This document shows positions 1 to 63,961 of a stretch of 64,000 nucleotides of DNA, piece by piece. Source of the DNA: a virus (lineage: Duplodnaviria > Caudoviricetes); the IMG/VR virus record IMGVR_UViG_3300020576_002361, positions 14,976 to 78,975 of that record; one strand, given 5' to 3'. Positions within the stretch are counted from its first letter, which is position 1. Every line of letters begins with the position of its first letter. The translations under genes were made by a program, and so were the position numbers. Below the pieces are notes generated by a model that saw nothing but the letters and a program-made list of their open reading frames with translations, was not told the DNA's origin and ran no database searches.

Positions 1-3000
1 CATATCCAGATAAAGGATCTCCTTCTACGTTTGCTGTTCCTGTTACTCCTTCCGAGGATACTACAATATAGTTTGTCTTGGTTAAAGTATCTGTATCATA
101 ACCATTGTCTATATCAAGTCTTACATTATAAGACCCTGCTCCAACATACTGATATGAAGCCGTAACTCCCTGACCGCTTGGACCAGTGAGAGTGCCGTGG
201 AAATACCACGTAGCAGTTCCGCCTGGATTCCAAGAATCTGACGAATCAAACACTACAGTTAATGGTGACTCTCCGCTTTGAATATTGGAATCAAAGAAAG
301 CATATACAGGATTCTTGCCATACGAATCAGGCGTTCCTATGAAATTTAGTTCTGGTTGATATGTATTCACTGGAACGTGAGTATAGATATCTTTCTGTAG
401 GAGCAGTTTGATGGCTCCACTAATACCAGTAGCTCCAGCAACTCCATAATTAGTATATTGCGGCTTATGTATTAGCCCTCTTGCGTCGAATACAAAGAAC
501 GGTCCGGCTCCGTTTTCCCAAACAGATCTTCTGATAAAGGTAAAGTAGTCATATTCAGACGGTCGGTGCATTATGGCTGTAGCACCTCTTGCTGTTCCAT
601 TTTGATATAACATCTGGAATAGAGGATAAGAAGTTGATACTTGTATTGCTTCTCTTGGCCATGGATTTTGAGTTGGAGTAGTAGAGGAAAGCGTATAACC
701 GTTTCCTGTCTGACTTCCATAACCAGCAGTTTCTGGCTCAGTTAGCCAAGGACAAATATACAAAGTCCTGTTTGACATTTCATCAAAATATGCCATATTA
801 TTAGACATTTGTTGTATTTGTTTCAAGCTATAATATAGACGGGCTTTAGTATAATCCTGTTGGTTTAAGAAGCTGTCTCCAAATGGAGTCGCATATCCAG
901 CCACACCCGTATTTACAGAATAAGTGCCTGTAAGATTAAATCCACCACTCACTCCTGTTATGCCCGCTTGATAACATTTTTCCAGAAATGTTCGATATGT
1001 CTTCTTATCAAACCATCCATCAGCTCCGGTCAAACCAGAAGAGGTAGGACCGGATGGACCAAAACCACTACCAACCCAGCCAGATCTATTAGCGGTCTGC
1101 TCTACTGGAGTATTACCAGCCGCAAGACCAAAGAACTGCTGAGCTTCTCTGTTTAAGCTGGTAGAATCAAAATAATTGAATCCCAGCAAAGAAGACACCC
1201 CATCTAGGTTAGGAGGGAATATACTTACGGCATCGTTTGGAGTATACGAACTTCCTGTATATCCAGACATTAAATCTATTTCATAAGTTAAGCTAGGTAC
1301 TTTTCCGCGATTACATGGGTATTGCTTGCTGCCCAACATATAATCGTATTCGCCTAATATCTTAATATTCGGGAAATAATTCTTTGCTTCTCCATAAATC
1401 TTACTCATTAACCAGTAAGTATGGGCATTGTGAAAACTAGTTAACCAGTTCTTAAATGTTGGGTTAATGTCTTCCGAAGATTGTCCAGGATCATGTGCGG
1501 TGTATCTGATATTAGCCACATCTAAAGTTATACCACCCGGATTAGTAGGATCATTACTTGGAGTTGCTGCGCCTATAAACTGAGCTGGTCTATACTGATT
1601 TGGGCTATAGTTACATCCCGAAGTAGTCGAGTGATTGAATGGTCCTGTTCTTCCCCACAAGTCCTTTAGAGTGATCTTATCAAAGAACTGATAGGTCGAT
1701 GCTCTAGGATCGTTGATTAGCTGAGGCCAGTATCCAGCATCATGTGTTTGCCCTGTTACTGCCGCTCCGAGAGGACCTGTATAACTAGAAGGAATATTAA
1801 CAAACAAATAAGGGGAGCTTATGTTTATGTAGGTAACATCTACTCCTCCTAAGTTCCTGGTGTAGTTTACCGCAGTCGAGGCATCTGTTATGGCATAAGT
1901 TCCAGAAGAGCTAGTTAAACCAATATATCCAGTTTTACCGGTCCACGTAGATGAAGTTCCTGTATTCAGTTTTACAACCTGTAAAGATCCAGTTGTTCCT
2001 CCAGAATAAGTATATTTTCTTATAGCTAACGGATAGCTTCTTGTAGCATCTAAGTTACCAGTAAGAGGAGAGAAAGGCCAAACTGGTGTAGTGTAAATAT
2101 TGTATCCAGTAAACGAACCAGCCGTAACACCTGTTAATCCCAGCGTCACGGTTGACACATAAGTTTGTTCCGCTACCGCCTGCGATCCTATTACCTGTGT
2201 TGGGAAATATTCGTTATCTGAGTTAATGAACTGAGGATAAGTTAATCCTGGTGTATATGGTATTCTTCTATCCAACTCGTTCTTCATGCTCTCGAATATT
2301 TTATTTACGCCATACATAGCACCAGACAAACCAGCCTGACAATATATGCTGCTCTTGCTAATATTTGAAGCATCTGTTACGCCGATTGCGAACGTTCCAC
2401 CAGCCATCGTAAGAACGTCGCTAGGATGATGCCAGACAGCCAACCATGAAGCAGTAGGTCCGCCAGATGTAATAGCACCAGCAGCTAAAGTAGTCGGCGT
2501 TGTATCTGTGTATTCGGCATACGGTCTGAACATGTTCAGAAGCATAACAGCCGGAATATAACAACCAGTCATACCTCTGTGGTTGTAATATCTGGTGTGC
2601 ATTTCAGCTTGCCAAGCTAATATTTTACCCAGATCCTGTTCTCTTGTTCCTGTTAGTTGATTAGTCCAATCAGCAACACTGGATTCACCAAAGGCGCCGG
2701 TTAATCCAGTCAATACATAGTTTCTAGCCACGTTACTGGAATAAGTATTCGTAGAATAGTTATTCATGGAAGCTTTATAGCTTTCCGACTGACGAGTAAC
2801 TACTGCTTGGCAAATAGGAGATGTATATTTGTGTATCTCATCAGAAAATACAGCAGCAGTTAATCCAGTAAAATACGAGTCTGGTCTCTGTCCATCTAAA
2901 CCAATAGGAGTAGTATGAAAAGGAGACGCCCAAGTATAAAATCTGGTGGCTACGTAAGCTGTTCCGCCTGGGTTATAAACTGGAATTTCTAGAGGATTGG

Positions 3001-3040
3001 TGATATCGGCTGTCGCAACAATGTTATTGTTAGCTGGCAT
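1..3040 (-). CDS. Large Gly/Thr/Ser-rich virion protein with C-proximal PKD domain (partial, runs off the window edge)
   Basis: Translated by hand from ATG at 3040 (MPANNNIVATADITNPLEIP...), open to base 1 (>1013 aa), so it is absent from the ORF track. PKD-like segment SGESPLTVVFDSSDSWNPGGTATWYF...SYQYVGAGSYNVRLDIDNGYDTDTLTKTNYIVV at ~60-310. GATAAATA late-promoter-like motif upstream (3075-3082). Confidence 0.85.
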   Translation of the reverse strand, partial: MPANNNIVATADITNPLEIPVYNPGGTAYVATRFYTWASPFHTTPIGLDGQRPDSYFTGLTAAVFSDEIHKYTSPICQAVVTRQSESYKASMNNYSTNTYSSNVARNYVLTGLTGAFGESSVADWTNQLTGTREQDLGKILAWQAEMHTRYYNHRGMTGCYIPAVMLLNMFRPYAEYTDTTPTTLAAGAITSGGPTASWLAVWHHPSDVLTMAGGTFAIGVTDASNISKSSIYCQAGLSGAMYGVNKIFESMKNELDRRIPYTPGLTYPQFINSDNEYFPTQVIGSQAVAEQTYVSTVTLGLTGVTAGSFTGYNIYTTPVWPFSPLTGNLDATRSYPLAIRKYTYSGGTTGSLQVVKLNTGTSSTWTGKTGYIGLTSSSGTYAITDASTAVNYTRNLGGVDVTYINISSPYLFVNIPSSYTGPLGAAVTGQTHDAGYWPQLINDPRASTYQFFDKITLKDLWGRTGPFNHSTTSGCNYSPNQYRPAQFIGAATPSNDPTNPGGITLDVANIRYTAHDPGQSSEDINPTFKNWLTSFHNAHTYWLMSKIYGEAKNYFPNIKILGEYDYMLGSKQYPCNRGKVPSLTYEIDLMSGYTGSSYTPNDAVSIFPPNLDGVSSLLGFNYFDSTSLNREAQQFFGLAAGNTPVEQTANRSGWVGSGFGPSGPTSSGLTGADGWFDKKTYRTFLEKCYQAGITGVSGGFNLTGTYSVNTGVAGYATPFGDSFLNQQDYTKARLYYSLKQIQQMSNNMAYFDEMSNRTLYICPWLTEPETAGYGSQTGNGYTLSSTTPTQNPWPREAIQVSTSYPLFQMLYQNGTARGATAIMHRPSEYDYFTFIRRSVWENGAGPFFVFDARGLIHKPQYTNYGVAGATGISGAIKLLLQKDIYTHVPVNTYQPELNFIGTPDSYGKNPVYAFFDSNIQSGESPLTVVFDSSDSWNPGGTATWYFHGTLTGPSGQGVTASYQYVGAGSYNVRLDIDNGYDTDTLTKTNYIVVSSEGVTGTANVEGDPLSGY

Positions 3041-3087
3041 TATGAGTCCTTGAGGTTATAAATATTACTGTGGATATTTATCTCCAC

Positions 3088-3115: not shown

Positions 3116-3140
3116 ATATAGATATCTGTATATAGATCGA

Positions 3141-3371: not shown

Positions 3372-3374
3372 CTT

Positions 3375-8018: not shown

Positions 8019-8744
8019 TTATACTACGCGAATAGTAAACGATGCGCTTCCTGTCAATCCACCCGGAGAACGGCTATCAAATACTGATGCAGTAAGACCG
8101 TGAGTGCCAGTAGTTAGTCCGGCGTTAATACGAAGAACGGCTGCTCCGTAAGTCACACCACCCCAACCACCGAATGGGAAAGCCGCAGTAGTTACGCCAG
8201 CAGCCTGATAGAAGCTACTTCCTATAGCAGCCGTAGTGCCAGCGGTGATAGCTGTTATTAAGAGCGTGTTATTCCATACAGAAGTTGCACCAGTTGTGCT
8301 GAAGGCAAATGAAGTACCGAATTCCGTGCTGTTACAATCAGCCGCAATAACAGGAATATATGCTGTTACACCAAAGCTAACTCTATACTGATCTCCACCA
8401 AACGGAATAGTTAGGTAAGGTGCATAGTTTGGGTTTCCTGCTGCGTTAGTAGCAGTCGCTCCTGGTACACCTTGGGTTTGACCTCTGTTAGCAAAGTAAG
8501 TTTGCGTAACACCGGTTGGAGATGGATCCAGAGGAATAGCAACTAAAAGCTCTGTAGGAACTACAGCAACGCCGCTACTGGTCACGTATGATTGATTAAA
8601 AGGATTAGCAGTAGTTCCAGTAACACCGGCACCTACTAGCGGAATCTCCCAACCTCTGACAGTACGGAAACATACTCTCTTCTGTTCCTCGGTGAGCCAT
8701 GATGGTTTTGAGCTTTCTCTATCGTTTGAGTTCCAAAGTGCCAT
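8019..8744 (-). CDS. Gly/Thr/Ala-rich putative virion protein
   Basis: MALWN..D start typical of T4-like structural ORFs; about 11 G-x-T motifs. Confidence 0.7.
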   Translation of the reverse strand: MALWNSNDRESSKPSWLTEEQKRVCFRTVRGWEIPLVGAGVTGTTANPFNQSYVTSSGVAVVPTELLVAIPLDPSPTGVTQTYFANRGQTQGVPGATATNAAGNPNYAPYLTIPFGGDQYRVSFGVTAYIPVIAADCNSTEFGTSFAFSTTGATSVWNNTLLITAITAGTTAAIGSSFYQAAGVTTAAFPFGGWGGVTYGAAVLRINAGLTTGTHGLTASVFDSRSPGGLTGSASFTIRVV

Positions 8745-14705: not shown

Positions 14706-17261
14706 TCAAGTATATAGATCTTTTATTGATAGGAACTTGGTGCCTTTATCTGAAAGCTCTTTGTTATTTTTCTTTATATCTTCATAGAAGTTCCAAGCTA
14801 ACACCACAATCAAATCTGGCTTAATAGTATTTGCTATACTACGATCCTTTATGGGAATATTAACACCAGGAATATACTTTCCATTCTTTAGAGCATTATC
14901 CTCTATTGTATATACGATATCTTTGTCTGTTATTCCAAAGAAGTTTAGACCTGTTGTGGCTTTTGCTGGAGATCCATAGGCTGCTATCGTACGGAATATT
15001 TTTTTTTGCTCTTCCATGTTCTTTCTAACAGTTTCTCTTAACTTGTAAACTCTTTCACCGAATGATCTATAAGCCCGTATGCTATCAAGCCCATATTCTC
15101 GTTCTGTTTGTATAAAAGCAGCCACGTTTTTAGATTCGGTGGAAGACCGGCTTACATACACTCGAATAGATCCACCGTGCGTATTGATATGCTCAACGTC
15201 ATTCACAAAGTATCCGCAACTTCTGAAAAAGTTCTTTAAGGACAACACTGACCAATAGTTAGTATGTTCGTGGTATATATTATCAAAAGTCAAATCCTTC
15301 ATAGTATCTAACAAATACTGAACTTCAATGATAAACGTACCATTTTCCTTCAACAAACGAAACGCAGCATGGGCTATATCTTTTAGTTTATCAGAGTGCG
15401 CAAATACATTCGAGGCTGTAACTATATCAGCCCATCCAAATTCATGTGTTACGCTATCAGCAACATTACTGTCAAAGTATCGGTTATACGTGAGTACCCC
15501 GGATTCATTAGCTAACTTTGCTATGTTTTTGGCTGGCTCAATTCCGAGTACCTTTATTCCTTTTTTCTGGAAAGGTTTCAACGCAATACCATCGTTACTT
15601 CCTATATCAACCACAAATGATTCGTTTGTCAGATTAAATCTAGACACATAGGAATCAGCCGCATCTTCGAAGTGCTTTCTGAAAGTTTGAGATGTGGAAG
15701 AAACATACAGATAGTTATCGAACATCTTTTCGGGAGGTACAACTACAGAAAGCTGGCAGTTATGGCAAGAAGGGCAATATTTCATCTCAAGAGGGAATAA
15801 CTCTTCTTTTTCTTGTTTTTCATTTTTTAAACTGTTGGCTAAAGGAGAAAGACCCAACGAAACTACATCTTCCAAATGCTTATTACCGCAGGATCGGCAA
15901 GACTTCTTGTATGTCTCCAAGAGCTGCTTACGCATGGATTCATCTACAAGAATATACGGTATCGTGTGAGTAATACCATAATTTTCATGTTCTCTTTCGC
16001 CTCTTACGAGATTAAGGAATATAGAATCTTCCGTAAACACCATAGTATGCGCTACGTTTGGTTTGATTATGGCTATATCACCCTCATTAACTAAACGAGT
16101 TTCAACTGGTGCATTTTCTGTAAGCAAATCTTTAGTTACGCTAATGTACTGACCTTTAACCAGTAAGCATTTTTGCTCTTGAATAGGATGATAGTGATTT
16201 GCTCTTACTGTTTCTGCTTTGGATTCAATATATCCTATCAGGTTAATAGGCTCGGTAAGTTCATAATTTCGTATGATGCCTCTATTGTCAACATACTCCT
16301 TTCCCCCTTTGTCCATATACTCCAAAGACGGATTGATATCCTTCTTTGACCAGTGATGGATCATTTCTTCGAGGCACTTCTTTAGTGAATATCGGAAAGT
16401 GAACCCGGTTTTCAGAAGATTTTCATTAGAAATAGTATACCCTAGATTAGGAATTTCGTCCTTTGTTTCTACTATAGTAACATTAGGATTTATTTCCTTA
16501 CAAAGATTAGCAACTTCCTTGATGGTAGTAGATTCGTTGGAAAGATGAAAAAGTTTTCTAGAAATATCGGATCTTTCCTCCATAAACTTCATACATCTGG
16601 CGACATCATAGACAGATACTAGACTCTTTAACTGAACTCCACCAGAGAACAAACTTATGGTACCATTCATCGAAGTTATCTTTGAGAACAAATTAGGCAT
16701 TATTCCCATTCTCATAGTATCTGTAGAGTAACCGTAGACAGAAGCTAAACGAAGAATAACAAAGTTTCTGTTTGAAGCAAACAGATCTTCTTCGTTCTGA
16801 ACCTTTACTTTGGCATAAGTTAGGACCGGGCAAGGAGGAATGCATTCAGAAATATCAGTTTTGGTTTCAGAAAATCCTTCATATACTACGTGTGTTGATG
16901 GGAAGATAATCTTTGCGTTTGGATTAGAATATTTGATAACATTTCGAGTACCTTCCACGCCGACGCAAATTATTTGCTTATCGTGTTCCTCGTTAGATTG
17001 TGTCTTGACATAAGCCACGTCTGTTATACCAGCTAGATGAATAATCACATCAGCTTTTGAAAGGTGGGGTTCTAAAGCTTTCTCATCTAAAATAGAAGCC
17101 TGAACATAATCAATACCCCAATTTCTTAATTGTGATACCCTTTCCGATACAAATCTATTATCTATTACTGTAATTTTATTTACTCTAGATTCCCCAGAAT
17201 AAATCTTACAAAGCTCACAACCAATATAACCGAGACCACCGGTAATCACTATATTTTTCAT
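14706..17261 (-). CDS. Tri-domain fusion: NAD-dependent epimerase/dehydratase + cupin + NDP-sugar C-methyltransferase
   Basis: ITGGLGYIG and YAKVK (SDR domain); RANHYHPIQEQ...HTM (cupin); CRSCG...CPSCHNCQL, DIGSNDG, IYHEH, HGGSIR, YGSPAK (C-methyltransferase). Confidence 0.9.
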   Translation of the reverse strand: MKNIVITGGLGYIGCELCKIYSGESRVNKITVIDNRFVSERVSQLRNWGIDYVQASILDEKALEPHLSKADVIIHLAGITDVAYVKTQSNEEHDKQIICVGVEGTRNVIKYSNPNAKIIFPSTHVVYEGFSETKTDISECIPPCPVLTYAKVKVQNEEDLFASNRNFVILRLASVYGYSTDTMRMGIMPNLFSKITSMNGTISLFSGGVQLKSLVSVYDVARCMKFMEERSDISRKLFHLSNESTTIKEVANLCKEINPNVTIVETKDEIPNLGYTISNENLLKTGFTFRYSLKKCLEEMIHHWSKKDINPSLEYMDKGGKEYVDNRGIIRNYELTEPINLIGYIESKAETVRANHYHPIQEQKCLLVKGQYISVTKDLLTENAPVETRLVNEGDIAIIKPNVAHTMVFTEDSIFLNLVRGEREHENYGITHTIPYILVDESMRKQLLETYKKSCRSCGNKHLEDVVSLGLSPLANSLKNEKQEKEELFPLEMKYCPSCHNCQLSVVVPPEKMFDNYLYVSSTSQTFRKHFEDAADSYVSRFNLTNESFVVDIGSNDGIALKPFQKKGIKVLGIEPAKNIAKLANESGVLTYNRYFDSNVADSVTHEFGWADIVTASNVFAHSDKLKDIAHAAFRLLKENGTFIIEVQYLLDTMKDLTFDNIYHEHTNYWSVLSLKNFFRSCGYFVNDVEHINTHGGSIRVYVSRSSTESKNVAAFIQTEREYGLDSIRAYRSFGERVYKLRETVRKNMEEQKKIFRTIAAYGSPAKATTGLNFFGITDKDIVYTIEDNALKNGKYIPGVNIPIKDRSIANTIKPDLIVVLAWNFYEDIKKNNKELSDKGTKFLSIKDLYT

Positions 17262-17264
17262 AAT

Positions 17265-18146
17265 TTATTTCCTTTTATCAAGCCATTCGAAAAGATTTAT
17301 AGTTGGTTTCCAATCTAACTTCTGCCTAATATTATTTATATCTGCCAGTGTGTCCTTTGCCTCGCCTGGTCTTTCTTCATGAAACGTTATATTAGAATTG
17401 ATAAACTTTGCAATATCCAAAATAGAATAATTTTTACCAGATCCTACGTTAAAAATTTCTCCGTTTATGTTACTATTATAATTCATAGCAAGTATATTAG
17501 CACTTATTACATCATAAACATGGATAAAATCTCTTCTTTTAGATCCATCTCCCATAATGTGGAGCATATTTTCTTTGTTTTGTTCCAAAAACAATCCAAT
17601 AACAGGGCAATATTGGCCCTTTATTGGCGATCTTTCTCCGTAGACATTGAAATATCTAAAAATACAAGTATCTAATCCATACAGAGAAGAATACATTTTA
17701 CAGAATTGTTCGCCTGAATATTTACTTACAGAGTAAGGATTTAAACAATCTATAGAGCATAATTCCGATGTAGGCAATTCATTCGTGAGGCCATATACAG
17801 ACGAAGTTGACGAATACAAAAATCTTTTTACTCCATAATACCTAGATTGTTGAAGTAGATGTACAGTACCCAAAACATTTGTCTCAGACGCTAAAATCGG
17901 ATTTTCTATAGCCAAAGGAATTCTAGATTCGGCCGCTAAATGAAATACGTAATCTATTTTACCTATTTTTTCAAAAGAAAAATCAATTATGTTTTCTTTA
18001 TAGTACGTTGCATTTTTGTTGTAATAAAAACAATCGTTACATCCAGATAGATTATCTACAACATAAACATCATTTCCATCGTCTATTAACCTATCAACCA
18101 AATGCGATCCTATAAATCCATTGCCACCGGTAACAAGACATTTCAT
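17265..18146 (-). CDS. NAD-dependent epimerase/dehydratase
   Basis: VTGGNGFIGSH, SSTSSVYG, YSVSK, RYFNVYG. Confidence 0.93.
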   Translation of the reverse strand: MKCLVTGGNGFIGSHLVDRLIDDGNDVYVVDNLSGCNDCFYYNKNATYYKENIIDFSFEKIGKIDYVFHLAAESRIPLAIENPILASETNVLGTVHLLQQSRYYGVKRFLYSSTSSVYGLTNELPTSELCSIDCLNPYSVSKYSGEQFCKMYSSLYGLDTCIFRYFNVYGERSPIKGQYCPVIGLFLEQNKENMLHIMGDGSKRRDFIHVYDVISANILAMNYNSNINGEIFNVGSGKNYSILDIAKFINSNITFHEERPGEAKDTLADINNIRQKLDWKPTINLFEWLDKRK

Positions 18147-19120
18147 AGATAATTCCCTAATATCTTAGATCCACTATAATCGACAGCAAATTCTAATTTG
18201 GAATACCCTATACTATTCATATATTCTTCCAATTTTCTATGGTTCTTATAAACATATACCATAAAAAACCCTCCGCCTCCGGCTCCTATTATTTTACCAC
18301 CAAGAACATTATATTGCTTTCGTAAATGCTCATATAAGGTATCAAAAGAATTTACAGAAATGTTAGACGAAAGTTTCTTTTTCAACTCCCAATATTCATG
18401 CATGAGTATACCATATTCATCGAAATTTTGACATTCTATAATTTCAAGCGTTTTATAACCATATTCTTTTATTTTCAATAATAAATCTTCTGTATTACCC
18501 TTCATCTTTGATTGTTCTTGTAATACATCTGATGCATTCCTTTGTACGTTTAAGTAATAAACTTGAATATTAGATAAAAATAAACTAAAATTCGTGTGTG
18601 AAATATTAATGTTCTTAACATTAACATTTCCATATGAATCTATAGTCAAAGTTTTCAGACCACCATACGAAGAAATATATTGATCTTGTTTACCAACTGG
18701 TTCATGTAATTTGTTGATTTCTATATCACATGCCTCTTCTGCTATTTCGGTAGGATGTCTAGATATTCGTTTGAATTCTCGCAAGGTATTGATCATTCCT
18801 ACCAAAAAGCTACCAGAAGATCCTAGTCCAGTATTGGTTGGCACATCTGCTATACTGCATATTTCCGCCGAAGTAATTTGATTCCTCAACAAAACTTCTC
18901 TTGCTCTTGTATTTTTTAATTCCGAGACATTTTTTACTTTTTCGTTTTCAGAATATCTCAGTATTATAGTATTATCAAATACGTTTGGCTTGAAAGTTAT
19001 GTAACAATACTTATCTATAGCCATTGTCACTACAAATCCACCATGCCTTTGGTAGAAGGAAGGCAGATCAGTTCCACCACCACCCAGTGTCATACGAAAA
19101 GGAGATCTTGATATAATCAT
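18143..19120 (-). CDS. hddA: GHMP kinase, D-glycero-alpha-D-manno-heptose-7-phosphate kinase-like
   Basis: SRSPFRMTLGGGGTDLP, PTNTGLGSSGS, VGKQDQY, GKIIGAGGGGF. Confidence 0.85.
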   Translation of the reverse strand: MIISRSPFRMTLGGGGTDLPSFYQRHGGFVVTMAIDKYCYITFKPNVFDNTIILRYSENEKVKNVSELKNTRAREVLLRNQITSAEICSIADVPTNTGLGSSGSFLVGMINTLREFKRISRHPTEIAEEACDIEINKLHEPVGKQDQYISSYGGLKTLTIDSYGNVNVKNINISHTNFSLFLSNIQVYYLNVQRNASDVLQEQSKMKGNTEDLLLKIKEYGYKTLEIIECQNFDEYGILMHEYWELKKKLSSNISVNSFDTLYEHLRKQYNVLGGKIIGAGGGGFFMVYVYKNHRKLEEYMNSIGYSKLEFAVDYSGSKILGNYL

Positions 19121-19824
19121 AATTCAAATCCAGCTTTTACTGCATCATTATAAAACATCTTAACCGTCTCTAGAGAATATTCTTCCAAATCTTTCCCACG
19201 TAACTCATTGAATTTTGTAATTAAATCAGAAGGCACGGTAATGATATCGCAACTAATAGCATCAGCTTGGTATATATTATACACTTCTCTCGGAGAAGCC
19301 CATAGCACTTCGACATTATCGGATGGCTTACACTCAACCGCATGAAGTATACTTACGGTGGGATTTATACCAGTATCCGCGATTCTTCCACCAAAAATCG
19401 ATATTACAGATTGGATGCTAGTATTTAGAGACTGATATACACTATCAATTTGCTGCTCAGTGAATACAGCCGTAACATTTAATTTAATACCAGAATTCGA
19501 TAATTCTCGTATAAGATTGTATGATGTTTGTTTTTTTGTATTCATTACTGGTATTTTGACATATACGTTATCAGCTAGATCAGAAAGTATCTTTGCCTGC
19601 CTATGCATATCATCAAAATCATCTGCGAAAACTTCAAATGAAATCGGGCATTCCTTGACTGTTGCCAGCACACGTTTAGCGAACCCAATATAATCAGAAA
19701 CTCCAGATTTTCGCATCAAAGTTGGGTTTGTAGTAAATCCACTGATTCCATTAATAGATCTATTATTGTAAATATTTGTAATTTGATCGTAATCGGAACC
19801 GTCAGCATAGATTTTAATTTTCAT
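19117..19824 (-). CDS. tal: Transaldolase (short type)
   Basis: GFTTNPTLMRK, ISFEVFADD, VYVKIP, LNVTAVF, SIFGGRIADTG, LWASPRE. Confidence 0.92.
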   Translation of the reverse strand: MKIKIYADGSDYDQITNIYNNRSINGISGFTTNPTLMRKSGVSDYIGFAKRVLATVKECPISFEVFADDFDDMHRQAKILSDLADNVYVKIPVMNTKKQTSYNLIRELSNSGIKLNVTAVFTEQQIDSVYQSLNTSIQSVISIFGGRIADTGINPTVSILHAVECKPSDNVEVLWASPREVYNIYQADAISCDIITVPSDLITKFNELRGKDLEEYSLETVKMFYNDAVKAGFEL

Positions 19825-20435
19825 AATTTATGTCCATAAAAACAATCATTTTCGTTTGCCATTCCTAGAAATTTATAACCATACGGCTTCAAAAAATCAT
19901 GCATTCTATCTTTTCTAAATTGAAAAGTAGATGTCTCTATTCTCATAAATTTAGGCGGGTTTTTTGCAAAATCAAGCCCTTTCAAAACTTGTATTTCATA
20001 ATCTTCTACATCAAGAGAAAGGTAATCAATATGAGAAATATTGTGTTTATCTAGTATGGACTGTAAGGTGAATGCAGGCACTTCTATATTGACTCGTTGT
20101 CGTTTTTCTAGTAATGCATTTATAGATTCGATACAAGAACAATACTCCGCATCCTTAGTTATTTGCCCGCTGAGGCTATCGCCCACAGAATTTTCTACAA
20201 AATTTCCACAAATAGTAGGTTCTGTATAATCAGCAGAAACTAAGGCTCCGTGTTCGATTATGTTGGTAGTACTTCTGTTTTTTAGACACTCTGTATATCT
20301 GTAAAAATTAGGCTCTACTAAAATTCCAGACCAACCTAATTCCTTTTCAAGATGTAATGTATTCGACTGATCTATACCGTTATTACACCCAGCTTCTATG
20401 TAAAAACCATTGCGAAAATTCAAATATTCCAACAT
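19821..20435 (-). CDS. FkbM-family methyltransferase
   Basis: YIEAGCNNGIDQSNT, WSGILVEP, YLSLDVEDYE. Confidence 0.88.
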   Translation of the reverse strand: MLEYLNFRNGFYIEAGCNNGIDQSNTLHLEKELGWSGILVEPNFYRYTECLKNRSTTNIIEHGALVSADYTEPTICGNFVENSVGDSLSGQITKDAEYCSCIESINALLEKRQRVNIEVPAFTLQSILDKHNISHIDYLSLDVEDYEIQVLKGLDFAKNPPKFMRIETSTFQFRKDRMHDFLKPYGYKFLGMANENDCFYGHKL

Positions 20436-21058
20436 TATTTTTTCCTCAACAAAGTATGGAATGAGTCTCCATATCTAACTTTATTTGCAAACGGCAATTC
20501 AAAAACTCTAAAATACTTAGGAAGAATTTCATTAAACCATATTTCTTTAGGAAATACGCTTTGGTGTAATGCATGTCCGTTTATTACATCGGGATTAGGA
20601 GCAATACTGGCGCAAAAAATGGAATCATCGTGCATGTGGTTCAGTATATTGTTAAAAAAAGATTCTAAATCATCGGGATGTATGTGTTCAACAACCTCCC
20701 ATGAGGTGATCAAATCAAACATAATTTGTTCGGAATTATCCAAAACTTTATACTCTTTCGTGGCGTCACACGTAAAGAGAAGTTTATTATAGAATTCTGG
20801 CCAATTAGCTCTTGCGTGTTTTACACTATAATCGCTTCCTTCTATACCTACCGCAAGATGTCCCCTCCTATGAAAATCTATAGTAAGTTGACCACCTGAG
20901 CAACCAACGTCTAACGTCTTTATTTTCTTGTGCCCAAAGAACTTTTCTATTTCAAAAATAAATCCATAATCAGTTGTATTATCCCGCATCGTCCCCCACG
21001 GGCATATATGATCGGGTGAATTATATGCAACCGGATACTTGGTGTCAACACGAATCAT
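20435..21058 (-). CDS. Class I SAM-dependent methyltransferase
   Basis: LDVGCSGG, IEGS, DLITSWEVVEH. Likely start MIRVDTKYP at 21058 (ATGA overlap with gmhA). Confidence 0.85.
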   Translation of the reverse strand: MIRVDTKYPVAYNSPDHICPWGTMRDNTTDYGFIFEIEKFFGHKKIKTLDVGCSGGQLTIDFHRRGHLAVGIEGSDYSVKHARANWPEFYNKLLFTCDATKEYKVLDNSEQIMFDLITSWEVVEHIHPDDLESFFNNILNHMHDDSIFCASIAPNPDVINGHALHQSVFPKEIWFNEILPKYFRVFELPFANKVRYGDSFHTLLRKK

Positions 21059-21618
21059 TTCGATTTTTCCTTTATAATAGATACAACCATATGCCAAATT
21101 ATACTCTGCCATTCTTCTGCGTGCGGGGTAATTCTACTATCAACTATAGTAGGAATATGTACACAAGCATTAGAACACTTCTTTGCATATCCACCATCAC
21201 GGCCAACTATAGATAGTATAGATGCACCGATCTTTTGTGCATATTTCATACAAGATACCAAATTAACTGAAGTGGTCTCGGAACCTCCCCCAACGCTCAA
21301 AACCAAAACCATATCATTCTTTGAAAAAGAAGAAACTTTAAGCCAATTGACATAACATAATTCCCAGCTTTCATCATTAATTCTCGCGGTGAGTTCAGAA
21401 ACATTATCTGTCACACAATACGACTCTATTCCTAATATTTTTCGGAAATCATTTACAGCATGAGAAGAATTTCCGGCACTTCCGCCAACCCCCAAGATAA
21501 AAAGCCTACCGGCATTTCTTTTTAGTGTTTCGATTTGATAAATAAAATCTTCGATGCTATTTTGATCAATCGAATCGGCAATGTTCTTTACTTCATTCAA
21601 ATACAATTGTATGCTCAT
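21055..21618 (-). CDS. gmhA: SIS-domain phosphoheptose isomerase
   Basis: LFILGVGGSAGNSSHAVNDF, ELTARINDESW, LSVGGGS, TPHAEEWQ. Confidence 0.85.
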   Translation of the reverse strand: MSIQLYLNEVKNIADSIDQNSIEDFIYQIETLKRNAGRLFILGVGGSAGNSSHAVNDFRKILGIESYCVTDNVSELTARINDESWELCYVNWLKVSSFSKNDMVLVLSVGGGSETTSVNLVSCMKYAQKIGASILSIVGRDGGYAKKCSNACVHIPTIVDSRITPHAEEWQSIIWHMVVSIIKEKSK

Positions 21619-21623
21619 GATTA

Positions 21624-22316
21624 TTACTCCAATACAAAGCAAGCCTGCGAATAATCTCTGCCTGGATGAAATGCTAAAATCTTATATTCAAATCCAGTTT
21701 TGAGTAAAAACTCTGCAAATGCCTTAACTTCATGATTTTTGTCTTTGAACTCTGGATATCCAGGAAAGTCATCAAAACAAATAACCGTTCCTTTAATGAA
21801 CCTAGATTCCAATTGTTCAAAAATAGTCTTAGCAGAGCTATACAAATCGGAATCTATATGAATAAATGAAATAGATTCCTTATTATTTTTAATAAATTCG
21901 GGAATAGTCTTCTCGAAAAAACCAGCATACAATCTAACATTCGTAGGCCAAGGAATAGTTGCCCGAGTTGGAGAAGAATCGTACATTCCTGGATTTGAAA
22001 ACTCGTTACTTAAATCTATAGCTCCATCAGGAACTTTGCCATTTAAGGAATAAACACCCAAAGGATTATTTGCATCCCAGTGTTCATGCAATCCATAAAA
22101 ACTATCAAAACCATGAACTATGTTATCTGTATTTTTTGCTATATGCTGTATAGTCTTTCCTCTATAAACTCCCATTTCCAACCACAATCCCTGTAATGTC
22201 GGGTATGTGGTACACTGATACATCCAAGTTTTATGGTTATCTAATACTGTTTTAATCCAAGGTGCTTTATCTAACGTAGACAATATTTCATCAATTTTTT
22301 CATTTACTGTCATCAT
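21624..22316 (-). CDS. TylF/MycF-like O-methyltransferase
   Basis: LEMGVYRG, HGFDSFYGL, GFFEKT, IHIDSDLYSS, CFDDF. Confidence 0.85.
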   Translation of the reverse strand: MMTVNEKIDEILSTLDKAPWIKTVLDNHKTWMYQCTTYPTLQGLWLEMGVYRGKTIQHIAKNTDNIVHGFDSFYGLHEHWDANNPLGVYSLNGKVPDGAIDLSNEFSNPGMYDSSPTRATIPWPTNVRLYAGFFEKTIPEFIKNNKESISFIHIDSDLYSSAKTIFEQLESRFIKGTVICFDDFPGYPEFKDKNHEVKAFAEFLLKTGFEYKILAFHPGRDYSQACFVLE

Positions 22317-23007
22317 AAATCCTTTTTCTTAATTCACTAGAAGACCAATCATGATTTCTATCATGATAGTATATATTCTTACACCACTCTTCGCCTGTTA
22401 TAGGTTTTCCTTTGCAATCTGATCCTAATATTCTAATATCTGGTTTTATTTTACATAATATATTTTTTAAATCCTCTTCTGTATGATATATTATAATTTC
22501 ATCTACATTTCTATTAGATTGTAACTGTAACAATCTTTCATCCAGACTTTGTATGGGCTTATTTTTACTAGGTCTTTCTACACTCGGGTCGTCATGAAGG
22601 CCTGCAATTAGATAGTCGCATACTTTTTTTGCTTCATTCAAATACAAGCAATGTCCGGCGTGGAGCAAATCAAAACAACTAGCAACAAATCCAACCAATC
22701 TAATATCATTATTTTTGCGCCAATCTATACTATTTATGGCCTTATCGTCAATAAAGCAGTCATAACTTGGCTTTTTCAATATCAATCTATGATATTTTAG
22801 ACCCCAAGATTTCAATTGCGATTCTGTCAATTCTCTGTAATCTATACCAGAAGTACTACCTCTTGCTGTAAAAATTGTTATATCATGCCCGCTATTATAC
22901 AAACCATTGATGAAAGATATTACCTTATCATAAGGAATAGCTTCGCTGTATATACGAGAAGACGGGGTTAAACATATAGTTTCATCTAAATCAAAGCAAT
23001 ATTTCAT
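22300..23007 (-). CDS. HAD phosphatase + cytidylyltransferase-like fusion
   Basis: FDLDETIC...FTARG...FIDDKA (HAD) followed by ASCFDLLHAGH...LIAGLHDD (HxGH nucleotidyltransferase). Confidence 0.88.
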   Translation of the reverse strand: MKYCFDLDETICLTPSSRIYSEAIPYDKVISFINGLYNSGHDITIFTARGSTSGIDYRELTESQLKSWGLKYHRLILKKPSYDCFIDDKAINSIDWRKNNDIRLVGFVASCFDLLHAGHCLYLNEAKKVCDYLIAGLHDDPSVERPSKNKPIQSLDERLLQLQSNRNVDEIIIYHTEEDLKNILCKIKPDIRILGSDCKGKPITGEEWCKNIYYHDRNHDWSSSELRKRIYDDSK

Positions 23008-24754: not shown

Positions 24755-24770
24755 TACTATTATTTCCTTA

Positions 24771-48942: not shown

Positions 48943-50289
48943 TTAGAAGAGGTTCGAAATTAGCACTTTCCGATAATATTGGTTTCTACCAGATCCAAGC
49001 CTCATCGCGTCTGGGTTACCGTCGGCGCCGAATACGAATGGATTCGAAACGATGCCGTAACGGGTCTTGAAACCGATCTTAGGCTGGAAGCTGTCTTGAC
49101 CAACGGCTCTTACCATTTGAAGAGGTACGTATGGACAGTAGAAGATACCCGCATCGTACGGTGAACTACCCTTATAACCAACGCAGAAGAAGTTACGAGT
49201 AGTAGCAACGTAAGGATCGATGTAAACCTTGATCTTACCGTTTAGGGTACCGGCGAAGGTATTACCTGTATCGTCTACTTGTAGGTTGGTGCTTAGAGCA
49301 GGAGCGTAATCTAGTACGCCAGCCATGCTTAGAGCAGCAGCGGTATCAGAGTCGCATAGGAGGAAGTTACCCTTACCTCTACGAGTTTCCTTAGCGATAG
49401 CGTTGCATTCACGCTCGATTTGGAACAACATACCCTTGAACTTTTCAACGCTCCAACGACCGTTCGAGTCAACGTTCAAGTCGAAAGTACCAGCTGTCTG
49501 GGTTTGACCTGTACGAGCGCCGGTTCTGGCTACGTTGTAGATGGTTCTAACAACTTCACGGTTGATTTCAGCCATAATTTCGTTAGAAAGAATGTTGGTC
49601 AACTCGGTTTCAGCGTCAAGACCGTGGGTGGCCTTCAAGTCTTGCTGCATTTCTAGAGACCATTCGGCCTTGAGGGCGCGGGTCTTGGCTTCAACAATCG
49701 TCTTCTCGATTGTGAATGCCATTTCCTTGAATGGGTTAGAAGTAGAGTCACCAAGAGCTTCACCGCGGGAGGTGATCATACCCTGGCGATCTGAGTCAAG
49801 AGGTGAGCTGAATGGATCTACGGCTCTCGAATCTGTATCGAAGTTGTAGCCACCAGTGAAACCTACGCCGGAATAACCAGCGGTAGCGCCCGAACCACCG
49901 AACTTCGCGTCAGCCTCTAGGAAGAGTGCTTCATCGCCGTCCTGGTTATTATACTTAGATCTTAGTGCGAAGATAAGCCCTGTTGGTCCGTTCAGAGGCT
50001 GAACGCCACAGATATCATACGCAATAAGGTTTGGCATAGAACGACGTACCAACGAGATTAGGATTGGATCCCAAGTGTTGACACGGGTCTGATCGATGCT
50101 GGTACCAAAGGAACCAGGGTTGTCGCCAATGCTGTTGGATGGAGCAGCTTCTGCTAGATTAGCTTGCTGATTCTCCAACAGAACAGTCGTTACATGCTTA
50201 CGGTACGAATCTTTGATTTCACCGAATGCTTTGTGTTCGATGATAGATGCCCACTTTTTCTGCAATCTTTCGGAAACTTTGATTTCCAT
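48943..50289 (-). CDS. 23: Major capsid protein gp23
   Basis: LISLVRRSMPNLIAYDICGVQP..GPTGLIFALRS, EMAFTIEK..VEAKTRALKAEW, FYCPYVPLQMVRA, KIGFKTRYG. Confidence 0.98.
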   Translation of the reverse strand: MEIKVSERLQKKWASIIEHKAFGEIKDSYRKHVTTVLLENQQANLAEAAPSNSIGDNPGSFGTSIDQTRVNTWDPILISLVRRSMPNLIAYDICGVQPLNGPTGLIFALRSKYNNQDGDEALFLEADAKFGGSGATAGYSGVGFTGGYNFDTDSRAVDPFSSPLDSDRQGMITSRGEALGDSTSNPFKEMAFTIEKTIVEAKTRALKAEWSLEMQQDLKATHGLDAETELTNILSNEIMAEINREVVRTIYNVARTGARTGQTQTAGTFDLNVDSNGRWSVEKFKGMLFQIERECNAIAKETRRGKGNFLLCDSDTAAALSMAGVLDYAPALSTNLQVDDTGNTFAGTLNGKIKVYIDPYVATTRNFFCVGYKGSSPYDAGIFYCPYVPLQMVRAVGQDSFQPKIGFKTRYGIVSNPFVFGADGNPDAMRLGSGRNQYYRKVLISNLF

Positions 50290-52152: not shown

Positions 52153-52650
52153 TTATCCTGTTATTCCAAACCCTGAAACCTTATCAACTTCTATAAAGAT
52201 AGAAAATGCTGTAGAGTCTGTACCAGTAATAGAAGTAGCATTATAAATGTCTATTTGATTTATTCTTTGCGCACCAGTAAGAGGGTTGGCTAACTTAATG
52301 CCATGCTCATTGAAATCCCATTGTCCGTTTCCGGATAGATAGACAGCTACGTTTCCGGCTGTCATTGCGGCTGATGGAATACCCCAAGAAACTGCTACAG
52401 ACGGGGTATAAGATGTAGCTGCTCCGTTTGGTGCATTGCTGATAGACCAATATATCTTCGAGATATCTACCAGAGAAGTGCTGGCTGTAGATCCAGACAA
52501 ACCATAACTCAAATCAGTCCACAAAATCGATGAAGTTAGTCCACCTGTGTTGAGAACTTGAGGTGAAACCACAGCATCTGTATAATAAGTAAACTTATAT
52601 ACAGCTCTCTGTAAGGTATCTGTTAGTTTCTGTTTATTAAAACTAGCCAT
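52153..52650 (-). CDS. Hypothetical virion protein in the head gene cluster
   Basis: 165-aa beta-rich, G/T/S-rich ORF between portal and protease. Confidence 0.75.
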   Translation of the reverse strand: MASFNKQKLTDTLQRAVYKFTYYTDAVVSPQVLNTGGLTSSILWTDLSYGLSGSTASTSLVDISKIYWSISNAPNGAATSYTPSVAVSWGIPSAAMTAGNVAVYLSGNGQWDFNEHGIKLANPLTGAQRINQIDIYNATSITGTDSTAFSIFIEVDKVSGFGITG

Positions 52651-56877: not shown

Positions 56878-58644
56878 TTATCGAGGACTGTTTAGAGAGG
56901 TGATTTCTTCGAACGAAACACCAGATCTAGTTGCGATGAAGTTTAGCTGGATATAGTTGATCGAACGCGATGGTTTGATGAATATATCTGCTACAAATCT
57001 ATTGCTATCGATTATCTCCGAGGTATTATTTGTTTCATCGCAAATAACCTTGAAGTCATAGACACCTCTTCGAGATTGAACATCTCTGAGGAATGGTTCT
57101 ACCATGCTTACGAACATGGCTCTAGTAAACGCATCGTTGAACTCGAACAACTGATACTTAGCAGCAATGGAAGTTGCTTTCTCTAGTACAATGAAGAGTC
57201 TGCGGACGTTGATTCTATCGAAGGCGCTTGGCTTGGTCTGAGCGGTCTTATCACCATATAGAACTGTTCCTTCTCCAGGAAGCGTTACTACTGGGTTGAT
57301 GGATCTAGCGTACAGATAATCTCTTTCAGCCTTTGTAGGATTGAATGCTAGCTTAGCAACACCCTTAATCTGACCTCTGTTGAAACCAGCTGGAGACCAC
57401 CAAGGATCGTTGGTGAGGTCTGTTCTGGCACACAAGCCAGCGATATCTGCGTTTAGAGGCACCCAACGCCATACGTCGTTATATCTATCGTACTGATACT
57501 TATATCCAGTATCAATAAATGCGTACGAGTTGTTTCCGATAGCATTTCTTAGAGTTTCACATGCAGCAATCTTTGTGGCAGAAGTAGCTGTTGGGTTAGA
57601 AACAGCAGGAGACACGAAAGCCACGCAGTCAACTCTAGCCTTTGCTATGTTAGCAACGTTGGCGCTGGCGCTTGAATCTAGTGGTCCAGCAATCAAGAAC
57701 GACACATCAACAAAATCTGGATCAGCGAACAGACCATATCCAACTGTGTTTCCTGAAGATGGGGCGATATCTGAGTCAGCGGTTGGCGAAGAAGCTGTTC
57801 CTCCAAGGAAGGAATAAATTGCACCACCGGTTACACCGCCGTTCCAAGAGAACGCGCTTCCTGGGTTGCTAATCGTACCGTAAGTACCGCCGTCGCCAGC
57901 AGGGTGTACAGAAATACCAGTTGGGTGGTTGAGCCACCAAACATACTTGGATTCATTGTTAATAACATTGACATAGTAGTTGGAAGATCCATCTGGGCGT
58001 CTAGCGTTGTTAGCCTTGGAAACGCCTTCGTATTTCTCAAGCAACGTACCAGTAAGTCCAGAAAATCTACCATCTTCGTCGATGATAGCAATGTGCATTT
58101 CGTCGTACGTTCCACCATAGCCTTCAGCAAATGGGGAAGTTGTAGGAGCAGCAGCAAACTGACCAGAAAGGCTCCATGAAGCAAATGCAGCAGTTCCGTC
58201 ACACAACTCGATTCGGAGTGAGTTGCCCAATGGACCAGCATACTTAGCAGCAAACTGAGCCGTAGCGCCTGCTCCGGAGTAAGCTATTGTTCCAGAAGAA
58301 GTATTGTTATCATATACTTCACTGTTTTTAATCAATATTGATTGATTTCCAGAAGTTGGTCCGGCGACCGCGTTCTTGGAGCTTGAATGTACTGTTCTAA
58401 CCACCTGAAGGTTATTTCCATAACTTAGAAAGTTGGCAGCTGAGAAGAAGTATTCGTAGGTATCGTTATCTGGAGCACCAAATAGCTGCACCAAATTCGA
58501 TTCGCTATCTACTAGAATACGCTGATCAGCAGGACCCCACTGAAAATAACCCGCAATTCCGGCTGGAGTGGTAGCCACGGCAGGAATAACGGAGCTAAAA
58601 TCCCGTTCCTGAACCAAAACACCAGGGCTAACTTGAAATGCCAT
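56878..58644 (-). CDS. 18: Tail sheath protein gp18
   Basis: MAFQVSPGV, FQWGP, WWSPAGFNRGQI, SAFDRINVRRLF, SRSINYIQLNFIATRSG. CATAAATA after it (56857-56864) could drive gp19. Confidence 0.97.
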   Translation of the reverse strand: MAFQVSPGVLVQERDFSSVIPAVATTPAGIAGYFQWGPADQRILVDSESNLVQLFGAPDNDTYEYFFSAANFLSYGNNLQVVRTVHSSSKNAVAGPTSGNQSILIKNSEVYDNNTSSGTIAYSGAGATAQFAAKYAGPLGNSLRIELCDGTAAFASWSLSGQFAAAPTTSPFAEGYGGTYDEMHIAIIDEDGRFSGLTGTLLEKYEGVSKANNARRPDGSSNYYVNVINNESKYVWWLNHPTGISVHPAGDGGTYGTISNPGSAFSWNGGVTGGAIYSFLGGTASSPTADSDIAPSSGNTVGYGLFADPDFVDVSFLIAGPLDSSASANVANIAKARVDCVAFVSPAVSNPTATSATKIAACETLRNAIGNNSYAFIDTGYKYQYDRYNDVWRWVPLNADIAGLCARTDLTNDPWWSPAGFNRGQIKGVAKLAFNPTKAERDYLYARSINPVVTLPGEGTVLYGDKTAQTKPSAFDRINVRRLFIVLEKATSIAAKYQLFEFNDAFTRAMFVSMVEPFLRDVQSRRGVYDFKVICDETNNTSEIIDSNRFVADIFIKPSRSINYIQLNFIATRSGVSFEEITSLNSPR

Positions 58645-62316: not shown

Positions 62317-63101
62317 AATTCACCATAATCAATGCGTCTTTCGTATATTGTTCCTGTAGCTCCTATAGATCCGGCTGTTGCTCCTCCCGTTACAGAGAAG
62401 ATGAGAGAAAGTGCTGTAGCACCAGTTGCTCCCAGTACTAAACTATCCATATCATACTGGTCGTAGAAGTTTACCTCGGACTGAGTAATAATCTTACTTG
62501 TTGTAGAAGGACCATATAGATGTACCTTAGCAACAAACTGTATACTTAATGTAAATGATTTGAACTGAGAGAAATCTTCTTCGTAGTCTTCAGATTTCTC
62601 TATTTTCAAAATAGAAATAGGTACATCTATCTTAGAATCTGGAGTTATTTCAGATAACGTAACATTAAAATCTGGACCAAAGTATGGCAATATTTGTTCT
62701 AGTATTTGTAGCGCGTCGTCTGTGTTCTTGGACACAATATGTAAAGTTATAAAGATATTATACGGAACTCTTTCCATTCGTTCATACATTGAAGTATTAG
62801 TAGATTGAACGGGGAATACAGACTTCTGTACGGTGTTTAGTTTTCTGGCTACATCATATTGAATATCTACAAACTCATATCCCATTCTGGGCAAATCCAT
62901 ACCAAACTGGCGAGATAAGTCAGGGTTTGAACTATCAGCTCTGATTACAAACTTCTGCTTTGGTCCATAAGCCAATGGTATTTTTATTCGTTCAAGTTCT
63001 TCACTCTGGGAGTTTCTTCTAGAAACATAGATATCATCAAATAGCGTGCCAAATGCTACGATAACTTTTCTGATTATACCGTGATAGAAGTAAGTTAACA
63101 T
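62313..63101 (-). CDS. 15: Tail terminator / sheath stabilizer gp15
   Basis: FYHGIIRKVIVAFGTLF, IKIPLAYGPKQKF, LPRMGYE, QILEQILPYF; G/A/T-rich C-terminal extension. Confidence 0.95.
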   Translation of the reverse strand: MLTYFYHGIIRKVIVAFGTLFDDIYVSRRNSQSEELERIKIPLAYGPKQKFVIRADSSNPDLSRQFGMDLPRMGYEFVDIQYDVARKLNTVQKSVFPVQSTNTSMYERMERVPYNIFITLHIVSKNTDDALQILEQILPYFGPDFNVTLSEITPDSKIDVPISILKIEKSEDYEEDFSQFKSFTLSIQFVAKVHLYGPSTTSKIITQSEVNFYDQYDMDSLVLGATGATALSLIFSVTGGATAGSIGATGTIYERRIDYGEL

Positions 63102-63961
63102 TAGAACTCCCCAAACGGATTATCTTCAGAGAAGTCCAGAATATCATCTGCTTCGCTTTGAATCTCAGCATTATCATCAGTCACGTCTATTGTATCGGAT
63201 ATAGCAGTGACTTCCATATAAGCAGTTGTACCTTGCGAGACATACCGAGTGATTGTACTGCTGGATGGTTGCCAGTTTCCTTTTACGTCCTCTATGGATA
63301 CTGTACTTCCATCGAATGCTTCTATTGTAGCAGAGGCATTTGCACCAGATAGTCCGGCTGTCGCAGATCCATTGGACCATTGATATACTTGTGAACCAAT
63401 CGCGAAGGTTCCAACGCCACCAGTGACAGACAGATATTTTCTATAGTCAACAGCTTCCACGAGGTTGTCGATCTCTGTTTCGCCGGTGGTAAAGACTTCT
63501 TCGCTGTAACGGAAGAGTTCGCAAGATAACTTGAATACATAGTTTTTGCCTAACTGATAAAATGGATATTCGTGTTCGACGAACTTTAGTTCGAAGAATC
63601 CTTTGGTTAATGGAAAGTAGATAATGTCGCCTTCCATCGGCCTTTCCATGTTTGTTTCTTTTTGAAACCTTTTCTTAGAAACTATAAAGGTAGCATTATC
63701 ATGAACTTCTAGACCAAACTTAGCCAGTATATCTCCAGACCCCTCAAAAGAGTTAGCTGTTTCTAAGTACATTTCTATTGGTCTGGCATCACCAAACAGA
63801 GATCTTGGATCTTCGCCAAACAACCAATCTTTATTCATCATCGTTCTAGGAAGATAAAAAACATCCATCCCTTTGATCTTGATACTTTCTATAACAAGAT
63901 CTTCTACGAGATTCTGTTCGTTATATTGCCTGATATGATTGAAATAATGGTTGGTTGACAT
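63101..63961 (-). CDS. 14: Neck protein gp14
   Basis: EQNLVEDLVIESIKI.G, YLPR, KFGLE, RPMEGDIIYFP, FYQLGK, LDFSEDNPFG. Confidence 0.96.
   Translation of the reverse strand: MSTNHYFNHIRQYNEQNLVEDLVIESIKIKGMDVFYLPRTMMNKDWLFGEDPRSLFGDARPIEMYLETANSFEGSGDILAKFGLEVHDNATFIVSKKRFQKETNMERPMEGDIIYFPLTKGFFELKFVEHEYPFYQLGKNYVFKLSCELFRYSEEVFTTGETEIDNLVEAVDYRKYLSVTGGVGTFAIGSQVYQWSNGSATAGLSGANASATIEAFDGSTVSIEDVKGNWQPSSSTITRYVSQGTTAYMEVTAISDTIDVTDDNAEIQSEADDILDFSEDNPFGEF

Follow-up and report, generated by a model that had tools for sequence, protein, structure and literature searches.

Introduction

As far as we know, some mycobacteriophages are the only tailed phages whose virions are established to be glycosylated, and no acceptor sequon for this is known to us. 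In these siphoviruses of Actinobacteria, as Freeman et al. reportedly described in 2023, phage-encoded glycosyltransferases decorate the phages' own capsid and tail proteins, with C-terminal regions being modified and no defined G-x-T-[GA] sequon. Here we analyse a window of 64,000 nucleotides, the last 64 kb of the 78,975-bp single-contig virus record IMGVR_UViG_3300020576_002361, which belongs to an uncultured T4-like myovirus and in which the four-residue motif G-x-T-[G/A] is enriched in virion proteins. Our proposal, made from sequence, resembles the mycobacteriophage case in that phage-encoded enzymes would act on the phage's own particle proteins. On balance we favour, with no great confidence, the reading that G-x-T-[G/A] is an acceptor sequon for cytoplasmic Thr O-glycosylation on the outward-facing parts of virion proteins.

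Protein glycosylation of a related kind is described in bacteria. SgtA of C. difficile, an enzyme with a GT-A domain and TPR repeats, transfers O-GlcNAc onto the Thr of G-P-T triplets in BclA3 and accepts Ser too, and its gene adjoins bclA3, which encodes a collagen-like glycoprotein of the exosporium (PMC7157674). GmaR, SunS and ThuS glycosylate proteins or peptides in the cytoplasm, with a helical repeat domain that holds the substrate (PMC9638930).

The phage system is similar to the SgtA/BclA3 pair in several respects: the acceptor Thr stands in G-x-T-G, SgtA has by description the cytoplasmic GT-A and TPR architecture of an enzyme found in the clade of the window's phage (hereafter GT2+TPR), the enzyme gene lies beside a collagen-like G-x-T gene, as it does in the relative L001, and Ser is accepted less well, as the weaker G-x-S-G excess would suggest for the phage. 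It differs in that most of the phage sites stand alone, dispersed over globular virion proteins instead of lying in a triple helix, that position 4 is Gly or Ala equally, that the system is viral, and that the enzyme gene is not on the window's contig (G000; other G-numbers are contigs of relatives and L-numbers are IMG/VR loci). Our search of the literature turned up neither the motif nor a GT2+TPR virion system described for T4-like phages.

Enrichment of the motif in virion proteins

The genes of the window, nearly all of which lie on the minus strand, were assigned by PHROG and Pfam scans, and expected motif counts come from shuffling each protein 2000 times with its composition preserved. 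In the virion proteins, putative ones included, there are 41 G-x-T-[G/A] sites against 5.3 expected, and all remaining proteins of the window contain 6 against 5.8. The clustering of G-x-T motifs in structural proteins, claimed in a preliminary description of the window, is therefore upheld by shuffled controls, which place the enrichment in virion proteins only. A set of virion proteins defined by homology alone (gp13, gp15, gp18, gp19, portal, gp23 and tube-like) holds 12 sites against about 1.8 expected, indicating that the excess is independent of picking proteins by their motif content.

The largest number of sites is found in a PKD-domain protein (20 against 2.2 expected), followed by the open reading frame (ORF) ORF8019 (7 against 1.0), gp15 (4 against 0.1), gp18 (4 against 0.6), gp23 (3 against 0.5) and ORF 52153 (2 against 0.3). 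The motifs previously quoted for a gp23 loop, gp18 and the PKD protein were all found, and the four GAT attributed to the C-terminal extension of gp15 correspond to its four sites, all within residues 224-250. ORF8019, described as having about 11 G-x-T, has 13, of which 7 fit the strict motif; of the GLTS and GITG reported for ORF 52153, GITG was recovered and GLTS was not, and the second site under the strict motif is GSTA.

In an unbiased scan of all 8000 gapped tripeptides of the form a.bc, G.TA ranks first in the virion proteins (20 against 2.5, p=3e-12) and G.TG second (21 against 2.9, p=6e-12), eight orders of magnitude ahead of the third-ranked pattern, while the same scan of the non-virion proteins gave nothing comparable. 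The reversed motif, G-T-x-[GA], G-x-x-T-[GA], A-x-T-[GA] and G-x-T-[not GA] are all at expectation in the window. Synonymous codons vary freely at all three fixed positions, so the signal lies at the protein level and a DNA-level motif is ruled out. At position x, A, L and V are preferred, G and A are equally frequent at position 4, and no wider sequence context is conserved around the window sites. Replacement of Thr by Val or Ile (G.V/I[GA]) is not enriched and G.SG is enriched weakly, which indirectly suggests that this acceptor-like motif needs a hydroxyl residue. A sortase substrate (LPxTG) was also considered and rejected, since among 40 site contexts position 0 is always Gly and there is neither an L-P context nor a C-terminal sorting signal.

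The residues flanking the motif show a mild excess of Gly at -3 and +6, and long collagen-like (G-x-T)n runs occur in fibre proteins of some relatives and of the cultured cyanophage P-SSM2. Both observations would suit an origin of the motif as a by-product, either of decayed collagen-like G-x-T repeats spread by fibre-gene recombination or of local G/T/A-rich low complexity. Such runs inflate raw counts in the relatives and in P-SSM2, and for this reason they were masked in all cross-genome counts. Runs of at least four G-x-y triplets cover 12 residues in all of G000, and of the 47 window sites a single one falls within such a collagen-like run, which rules out collagen-like repeats as the cause in the window; position 4 is moreover Ala, not Gly, at half of the sites. 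Low complexity and local composition are ruled out by 30- and 12-residue block shuffles, under which the excess persists (20 against 2.8 and 3.1 in the PKD protein), and across all genomes it outlasts the masking of collagen runs. P-SSM2, despite its collagen fibres, has no scattered excess outside these runs in its fibre/baseplate module. The masked and local-shuffle controls thus largely refute a by-product origin, which we consider very improbable.

Placement of the sites

All features of this section lie on the minus strand. The four sites of the tail sheath protein gp18 (56878-58644) are contained in its variable outer region, residues 93-294 (57763..58368), which we equate with domains I and II, the outward-facing ones, of T4 gp18. 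A good alignment to T4-type sheath structures is obtained for residues 1-92 and 295-581 only; in an alignment of the relatives the sites are confined to the variable part at lineage-specific positions, and gp18 of G013 carries inserted G/A/T-rich loops dense in motifs. In gp23 (48943-50289), GATA and GFTG stand in an extra surface loop, residues 131-146 (49852..49899), which bears motifs in the window, L047, G013 and G016 and is deleted in the motif-free G021 and G022. The C-terminal extension of gp15 (gene at 62313-63101; extension, residues 224-250, at 62352..62432) has four G-A-T-[GA] sites. This tail is motif-free in 36 of 41 orthologues, with sites also in L047, L001, G013 and G016 and none in G021 and G022. 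ORF 52153 (52153..52650, 165 residues), between the portal and prohead protease genes, has one of its two sites at the C-terminus, and the ORF at the same place in G013 has 4 sites against 0.5 expected. A single site occurs in the neck protein gp13 (63101..63961; head closure in PHROG), the last gene before the contig end. The sites of gp18, gp23 and gp15 sit on outward-facing parts of these virion proteins, which provides indirect support for the acceptor reading.

ORF8019 (8019..8744, 241 residues) consists of a conserved 35-residue N-terminus followed by Ig/cadherin-like beta-sandwich domains, and is a putative virion decoration or fibre accessory protein. Its AlphaFold model (predicted local distance difference test, pLDDT, 79.7) matches cadherin, Ig, S-layer and Hoc-like structures in Foldseek, and the match to the cultured phages S-SSM7 and S-SSM6a is restricted to the N-terminal 32 residues. 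All 81 homologues are enriched (3-14 sites against about 1), with sites spread over about 65 alignment columns, only two of which carry the motif in most sequences. The PKD protein, of which the window holds the N-terminal 1013 of 1148 residues (2..3040), is a putative fibre or adhesin with a weak PKD_4 match and 20 scattered sites. A homologue with 71% identity keeps 16 of the 20, with x changed at five, and has five sites of its own; no cultured relatives of this protein were found. Beyond the weak PKD match, PHROG and Pfam assigned no family to this protein or to the ORFs at 5589-12292. Among homologues the density of sites is kept as their positions turn over, which indicates selection on density and indirectly supports the acceptor reading.

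The same proteins bear on an alternative that we judge unlikely, in which the motif goes unmodified and serves the fold, with a Gly turn, a Thr that opens a beta-strand and then a small residue, in beta-sandwich and fibre families expanded in this clade. The most enriched proteins are indeed beta-rich, Ig- or PKD-like. In the ORF8019 model several sites, among them 125 and 229, lie at loop-to-strand starts, T127 is invariant and G125 nearly so, and some sites may therefore be structural. GPTG at residue 101 of gp23 is conserved in all relatives, motif-free ones included, and is a fold feature. A structural role alone would nevertheless have to contend with the failure of Val and Ile to substitute for Thr (ratio 0.85), with the change of position of most sites among homologues, and with sites in folds unrelated to one another (sheath, capsid loop, gp15 tail), frequently within inserted loops rich in G/A/T. 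Generic PKD proteins show no motif enrichment, and there is no excess in the large structural proteins of G021, G022 and P-SSM2.

Distribution among relatives

For comparison we used 80 gp18-anchored IMG/VR loci, most of which show no excess (median masked ratio 1.11); the exceptions include the closest relatives L001 (gp18 69% identical) and L047. In whole-contig scans of the 8000 patterns, G.TG and G.TA occupy ranks 1-2 in G000, G013 (168 kb, 93% complete), G016 and G007 and ranks 7 and 15 in G012, and are at expectation in G018, G019, G020, G021, G022 and G023.

The preliminary description had raised the co-occurrence of the motif with the sugar genes of the phage across relatives, and this holds in part. 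An epimerase gene is absent from the motif-free G018, G020, G021, G022 and G023, and G018, G020 and G023 have no GT2 matches either; of the 17 contigs that encode a complete ORF8019 homologue, 16 have an NAD-epimerase gene and 15 have GT2 genes. The pattern fails for G009, G005 and G019, in which sugar genes are present with little or no proteome-wide excess. The association between motif and sugar genes is thus real but imperfect, and it is confounded by shared ancestry.

As a separate observation, the 132-kb contig G030 (L296-L302; gp18 69% identical) has the gp22-to-gp13 block and the GT2+TPR gene in common with the window's clade, and outside that block almost no BLAST similarity to the replication genes of the window. 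Either the genome is a mosaic or the assembly is chimeric.

A candidate glycosyltransferase of the clade

The gene for GT2+TPR, a protein of 386-420 residues, stands in the block of virion genes in G013, G016 and G007, with 73-82% identity among the three proteins, and is also found in G024, the contig of L001. It is absent from G018, G020, G021, G022 and G023. In L001 the gene (505-1602) is directly upstream of a (G-A-T-G-S-T)n collagen-like fibre gene (1653-4100) and 4.4 kb beyond gp13 (6012-6866). The N-terminal GT2 domain (GT-A) has PF00535 matches in relatives with E-values of 4e-11 and 2.5e-7, and a D-A-D (D-x-D) is invariant in the alignment. In the C-terminal half Pfam TPR matches are sub-threshold; consensus TPR proteins match positions 230-327 in a PDB profile search (E 3e-4), and the model is all-helical over residues 182-384, with pLDDT of 77-93 over 180-300.

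The PDB profile search also returned GmaR (3e-11), SunS (4e-9) and ThuS, and Foldseek with the model, which is of low confidence (pLDDT 59.5), placed SunS and ThuS first over the full length, with TPR proteins among the matches too. By profile and fold, GmaR, the Listeria flagellin O-GlcNAc transferase, and SunS and ThuS, the glycocin S-glycosyltransferases, are the nearest solved relatives of GT2+TPR, and remote ones at that (E-values of 1e-9 to 1e-11 for the glycosyltransferase domain). Their substrates differ, being flagellin or small bacteriocin peptides (Cys in SunS), and we know of no G-x-T sequon for any of the three.

At least 523 IMG/VR loci encode GT2+TPR. Cultured T4-like phages gave no match, the best being Tunturiibacter phage Tunturi_5 at 34%. 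We counted the motif in the ORFs neighbouring the gene in 80 fetched loci, with collagen runs masked. The ratio of observed to expected sites is 3.46 for G.T[GA] (1276 against 369), compared to 1.22 for the reversed [GA]T.G, 1.17 for G.T[not GA], 1.50 for G.S[GA] and 0.85 for G.[VI][GA]. The 57 evaluable loci have a median ratio of 3.4, with no value under 1.3, a statistically significant difference from the gp18-anchored loci (Mann-Whitney p=2e-9). We regard GT2+TPR as the likely initiating enzyme of the proposed glycosylation.

Other candidates were rejected. A BLAST phyletic profile for a writer present in G000, G013 and G016 and missing from G021 and G022 returned just an epimerase and small unknown ORFs beside ORF8019. 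A GT47-like gene is present in only 3 of 24 records, and the small GT2 of about 200 residues in the islands of relatives finds no support as the counterpart of an unannotated 214-residue ORF of the window (29990-30634; hhalign probability 0.15%). A protein of 1000-1200 residues that adjoins the ORF8019 homologue in G013 (L142:13639-17241) and G016 (L155:11-3010) was examined as a glycosyltransferase and is instead a fusion of RimK-like ATP-grasp, putative Zn protease, DUF5824, DUF3140 and DUF6321 domains, with a nucleotidyltransferase in G013 only. Its window counterpart is a set of three unannotated ORFs (8745-12292), of which a short stretch of just one matches.

The glycan island

Between gp41 (13185-14663) and uvsX (30638-31666), the window carries a 15-kb island for glycan synthesis and methylation (14706..30015, minus strand), as identified with Pfam and PHROG. 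Its sugar enzymes comprise two epimerase/dehydratases, one of them fused to a C-methyltransferase, a GHMP kinase, a transaldolase, a SIS-like protein and a nucleotidyltransferase. Two FkbM and three other SAM methyltransferases bring the methyltransferases to six in all. The eight glycosyltransferase-like genes reported previously come down to seven (GT4, GT25, two GT10, GT47, GT77 and one weak GT34-like). Transaldolase, SIS-like isomerase, GHMP kinase and nucleotidyltransferase are clustered at 18143-23007 (minus strand). With the epimerases and the O- and C-methyltransferases, this cluster looks, from its domain content, like a putative pathway that starts at sedoheptulose-7-phosphate and yields a (deoxy)heptose in activated, methylated form.

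The scan of 20 ORFs from the island gave no match to the Wzx, Wzy, WaaL and polyprenyl-phosphate transferase families, nor to any Pfam family of the known O-antigen-modifying Gtr set. The lack of lipid-carrier, flippase and ligase genes fits a stepwise cytoplasmic assembly on protein, although host enzymes could fill these roles. The island resembles the lipopolysaccharide (LPS)/O-antigen auxiliary metabolic islands in that it is hypervariable, combines nucleotide-sugar enzymes with glycosyltransferases and belongs to a T4-like phage of aquatic origin, and it differs from them in lacking those genes and in co-occurring with a virion-restricted Thr motif and a protein-type glycosyltransferase. 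The same slot between gp41 and uvsX holds a different island in G013 (an aminotransferase, three epimerases, GT2, a GT47-like gene and a methyltransferase), and the two genes are adjacent in G021 and G022.

These observations also bear on whether the motif has another reader, such as host O-glycosylation, a kinase or other Thr modifier, or a binding partner (an assembly chaperone or decoration protein), while GT2+TPR and the island act elsewhere, be it on collagen-like fibres only, on the host envelope or on host proteins. We rate this as rather unlikely. Any Thr modification would meet the hydroxyl requirement, the island content is unrelated between motif-bearing genomes, and the RimK-like ATP-grasp/protease protein beside the ORF8019 homologue of G013 and G016 is a possible protein modifier. 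Moreover, glycosyltransferase islands of pelagimyophages and cyanomyophages have been assigned to modification of the host O-chain or surface, or of DNA (PMC7029224; PMC12801897). On the other hand, the motif fits the acceptor (G-P-T-G) of the one characterised enzyme with the GT2+TPR architecture (PMC7157674), the GT2+TPR gene has late virion genes around it and goes together with the excess in all 80 loci, and no kinase or other conserved writer emerged from the phyletic comparison.

Proposed mechanism and significance

From the motif statistics, the placement of the sites, the clade distribution and the co-occurrence with enzyme and sugar genes, we infer that the Thr is glycosylated, that GT2+TPR is the enzyme and that the island product is the glycan. 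GT2+TPR would put the first sugar on the Thr of G-x-T-[GA], as SgtA does on the G-P-T triplets of BclA3, and the hypervariable island between gp41 and uvsX would supply activated sugars together with extending and methylating enzymes. In the window these would be heptose or deoxy-sugar synthesis, seven glycosyltransferases and six methyltransferases, so that each phage would carry its own glycan coat. The clade would thereby use the same enzyme type and minimal acceptor as SgtA, with single acceptors spread over the exposed loops and tails of many virion proteins.

The two parts of the earlier proposal, that the motif marks Thr acceptor sites and that these bear a methylated glycan made by the island, fare differently. 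The acceptor sites find indirect support in the apparent selection on density, the outward placement, the need for a hydroxyl and the co-occurrence with sugar genes and GT2+TPR. The candidate enzyme is not one of the island's glycosyltransferases, and relatives that bear the motif differ in the gene content of their islands, so the link of the methylated glycan to these Thr residues is conjectural. A supply of the glycan by the methyl-sugar island of the window is plausible, and less probable than the sequon itself.

Several observations weigh against the glycosylation reading, in addition to the strand-start sites of ORF8019, the sugar genes found in contigs of little or no excess and the published reading of such islands as host or DNA modifiers. 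The motif-bearing genomes form a clade, as judged from gp23 identity and the shared gp23 loop, which is why the co-occurrence is confounded. None of the island glycosyltransferases is conserved between G000 and G013. Among the motif-free contigs, G021 has an unrelated 261-residue GT2-like ORF in its structural region and G022 a weak GT2 match. Finally, a search of G000 for GT2+TPR returned no match; the contig is rated 44% complete and ends at gp13, 39 nt past the start of that gene, and the lack of a match there is for this reason uninformative. By analogy with L001, the gene is predicted to lie just past the contig end, upstream of gp13, in the phage of the window.

A broader version of the proposal, which we advance tentatively and doubt more than we trust, extends it to a large clade of T4-like phages that are abundant in aquatic habitats and uncultured. 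Their entire virion exterior (head, neck, sheath, baseplate and fibres) would be coated with O-glycans by means of one sequon and GT2+TPR, the swappable islands forming a phage serotype system, and in that case much of what is called LPS auxiliary metabolic genes in marine and freshwater myophages would need to be re-read as virion-glycan genes. If glycosylation of the motif is true, very abundant environmental viruses would carry a glycan shield or adhesive coat, and the glycosyltransferase-rich hypervariable regions of aquatic myophages, now read as host O-antigen modifiers, would be reinterpreted. It would also offer a compact pair of tag and enzyme for cytoplasmic protein glycoengineering. 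A four-residue sequon with a named candidate enzyme would make virion glycosylation directly testable.

Other features of the window and its relatives

Further genes identified in the window are those for the small terminase, gp19, gp21, gp22, uvsW, uvsY, gp55, gp47 and gp46. The T4 late-promoter-like sequence TATAAATA is found on the minus strand at 10200-10207, 44258, 44565, 48868, 50318, 51494 and 58689, just upstream of gp18, gp22, gp23, a homing endonuclease gene, a second tube-like gene and, with the site at 10200-10207, the gene run of ORF8019. The glycan island has a single such site, internal, at 17333. The total in the window is not above chance (12 against 9).

The remaining features concern endonucleases and lie on the minus strand. 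The portal gene (53117-55963) encodes 948 residues, compared to about 500-580 in relatives, and matches the portal profile as two stretches. HNH-endonuclease profiles match residues 463-574, and this HNH-like insert looks like an intein or an inserted homing-endonuclease domain. The large terminase is split into two ORFs, 61500-61895 and 58717-60513 (region 58717-61895), which flank and overlap a 349-residue HNH/Vsr-like ORF (60506-61555) with a 51% identical copy in L047. Directly downstream of gp23 lies a 507-residue homing/HNH endonuclease gene (47301-48824) that has its own late-promoter-like site and a 45% identical copy in L047.

In the motif-free relatives G021 and G022 (L161-L173), the top proteome-wide gapped pattern is a different one, C.YC, with 7 occurrences against 0.3 expected in each.

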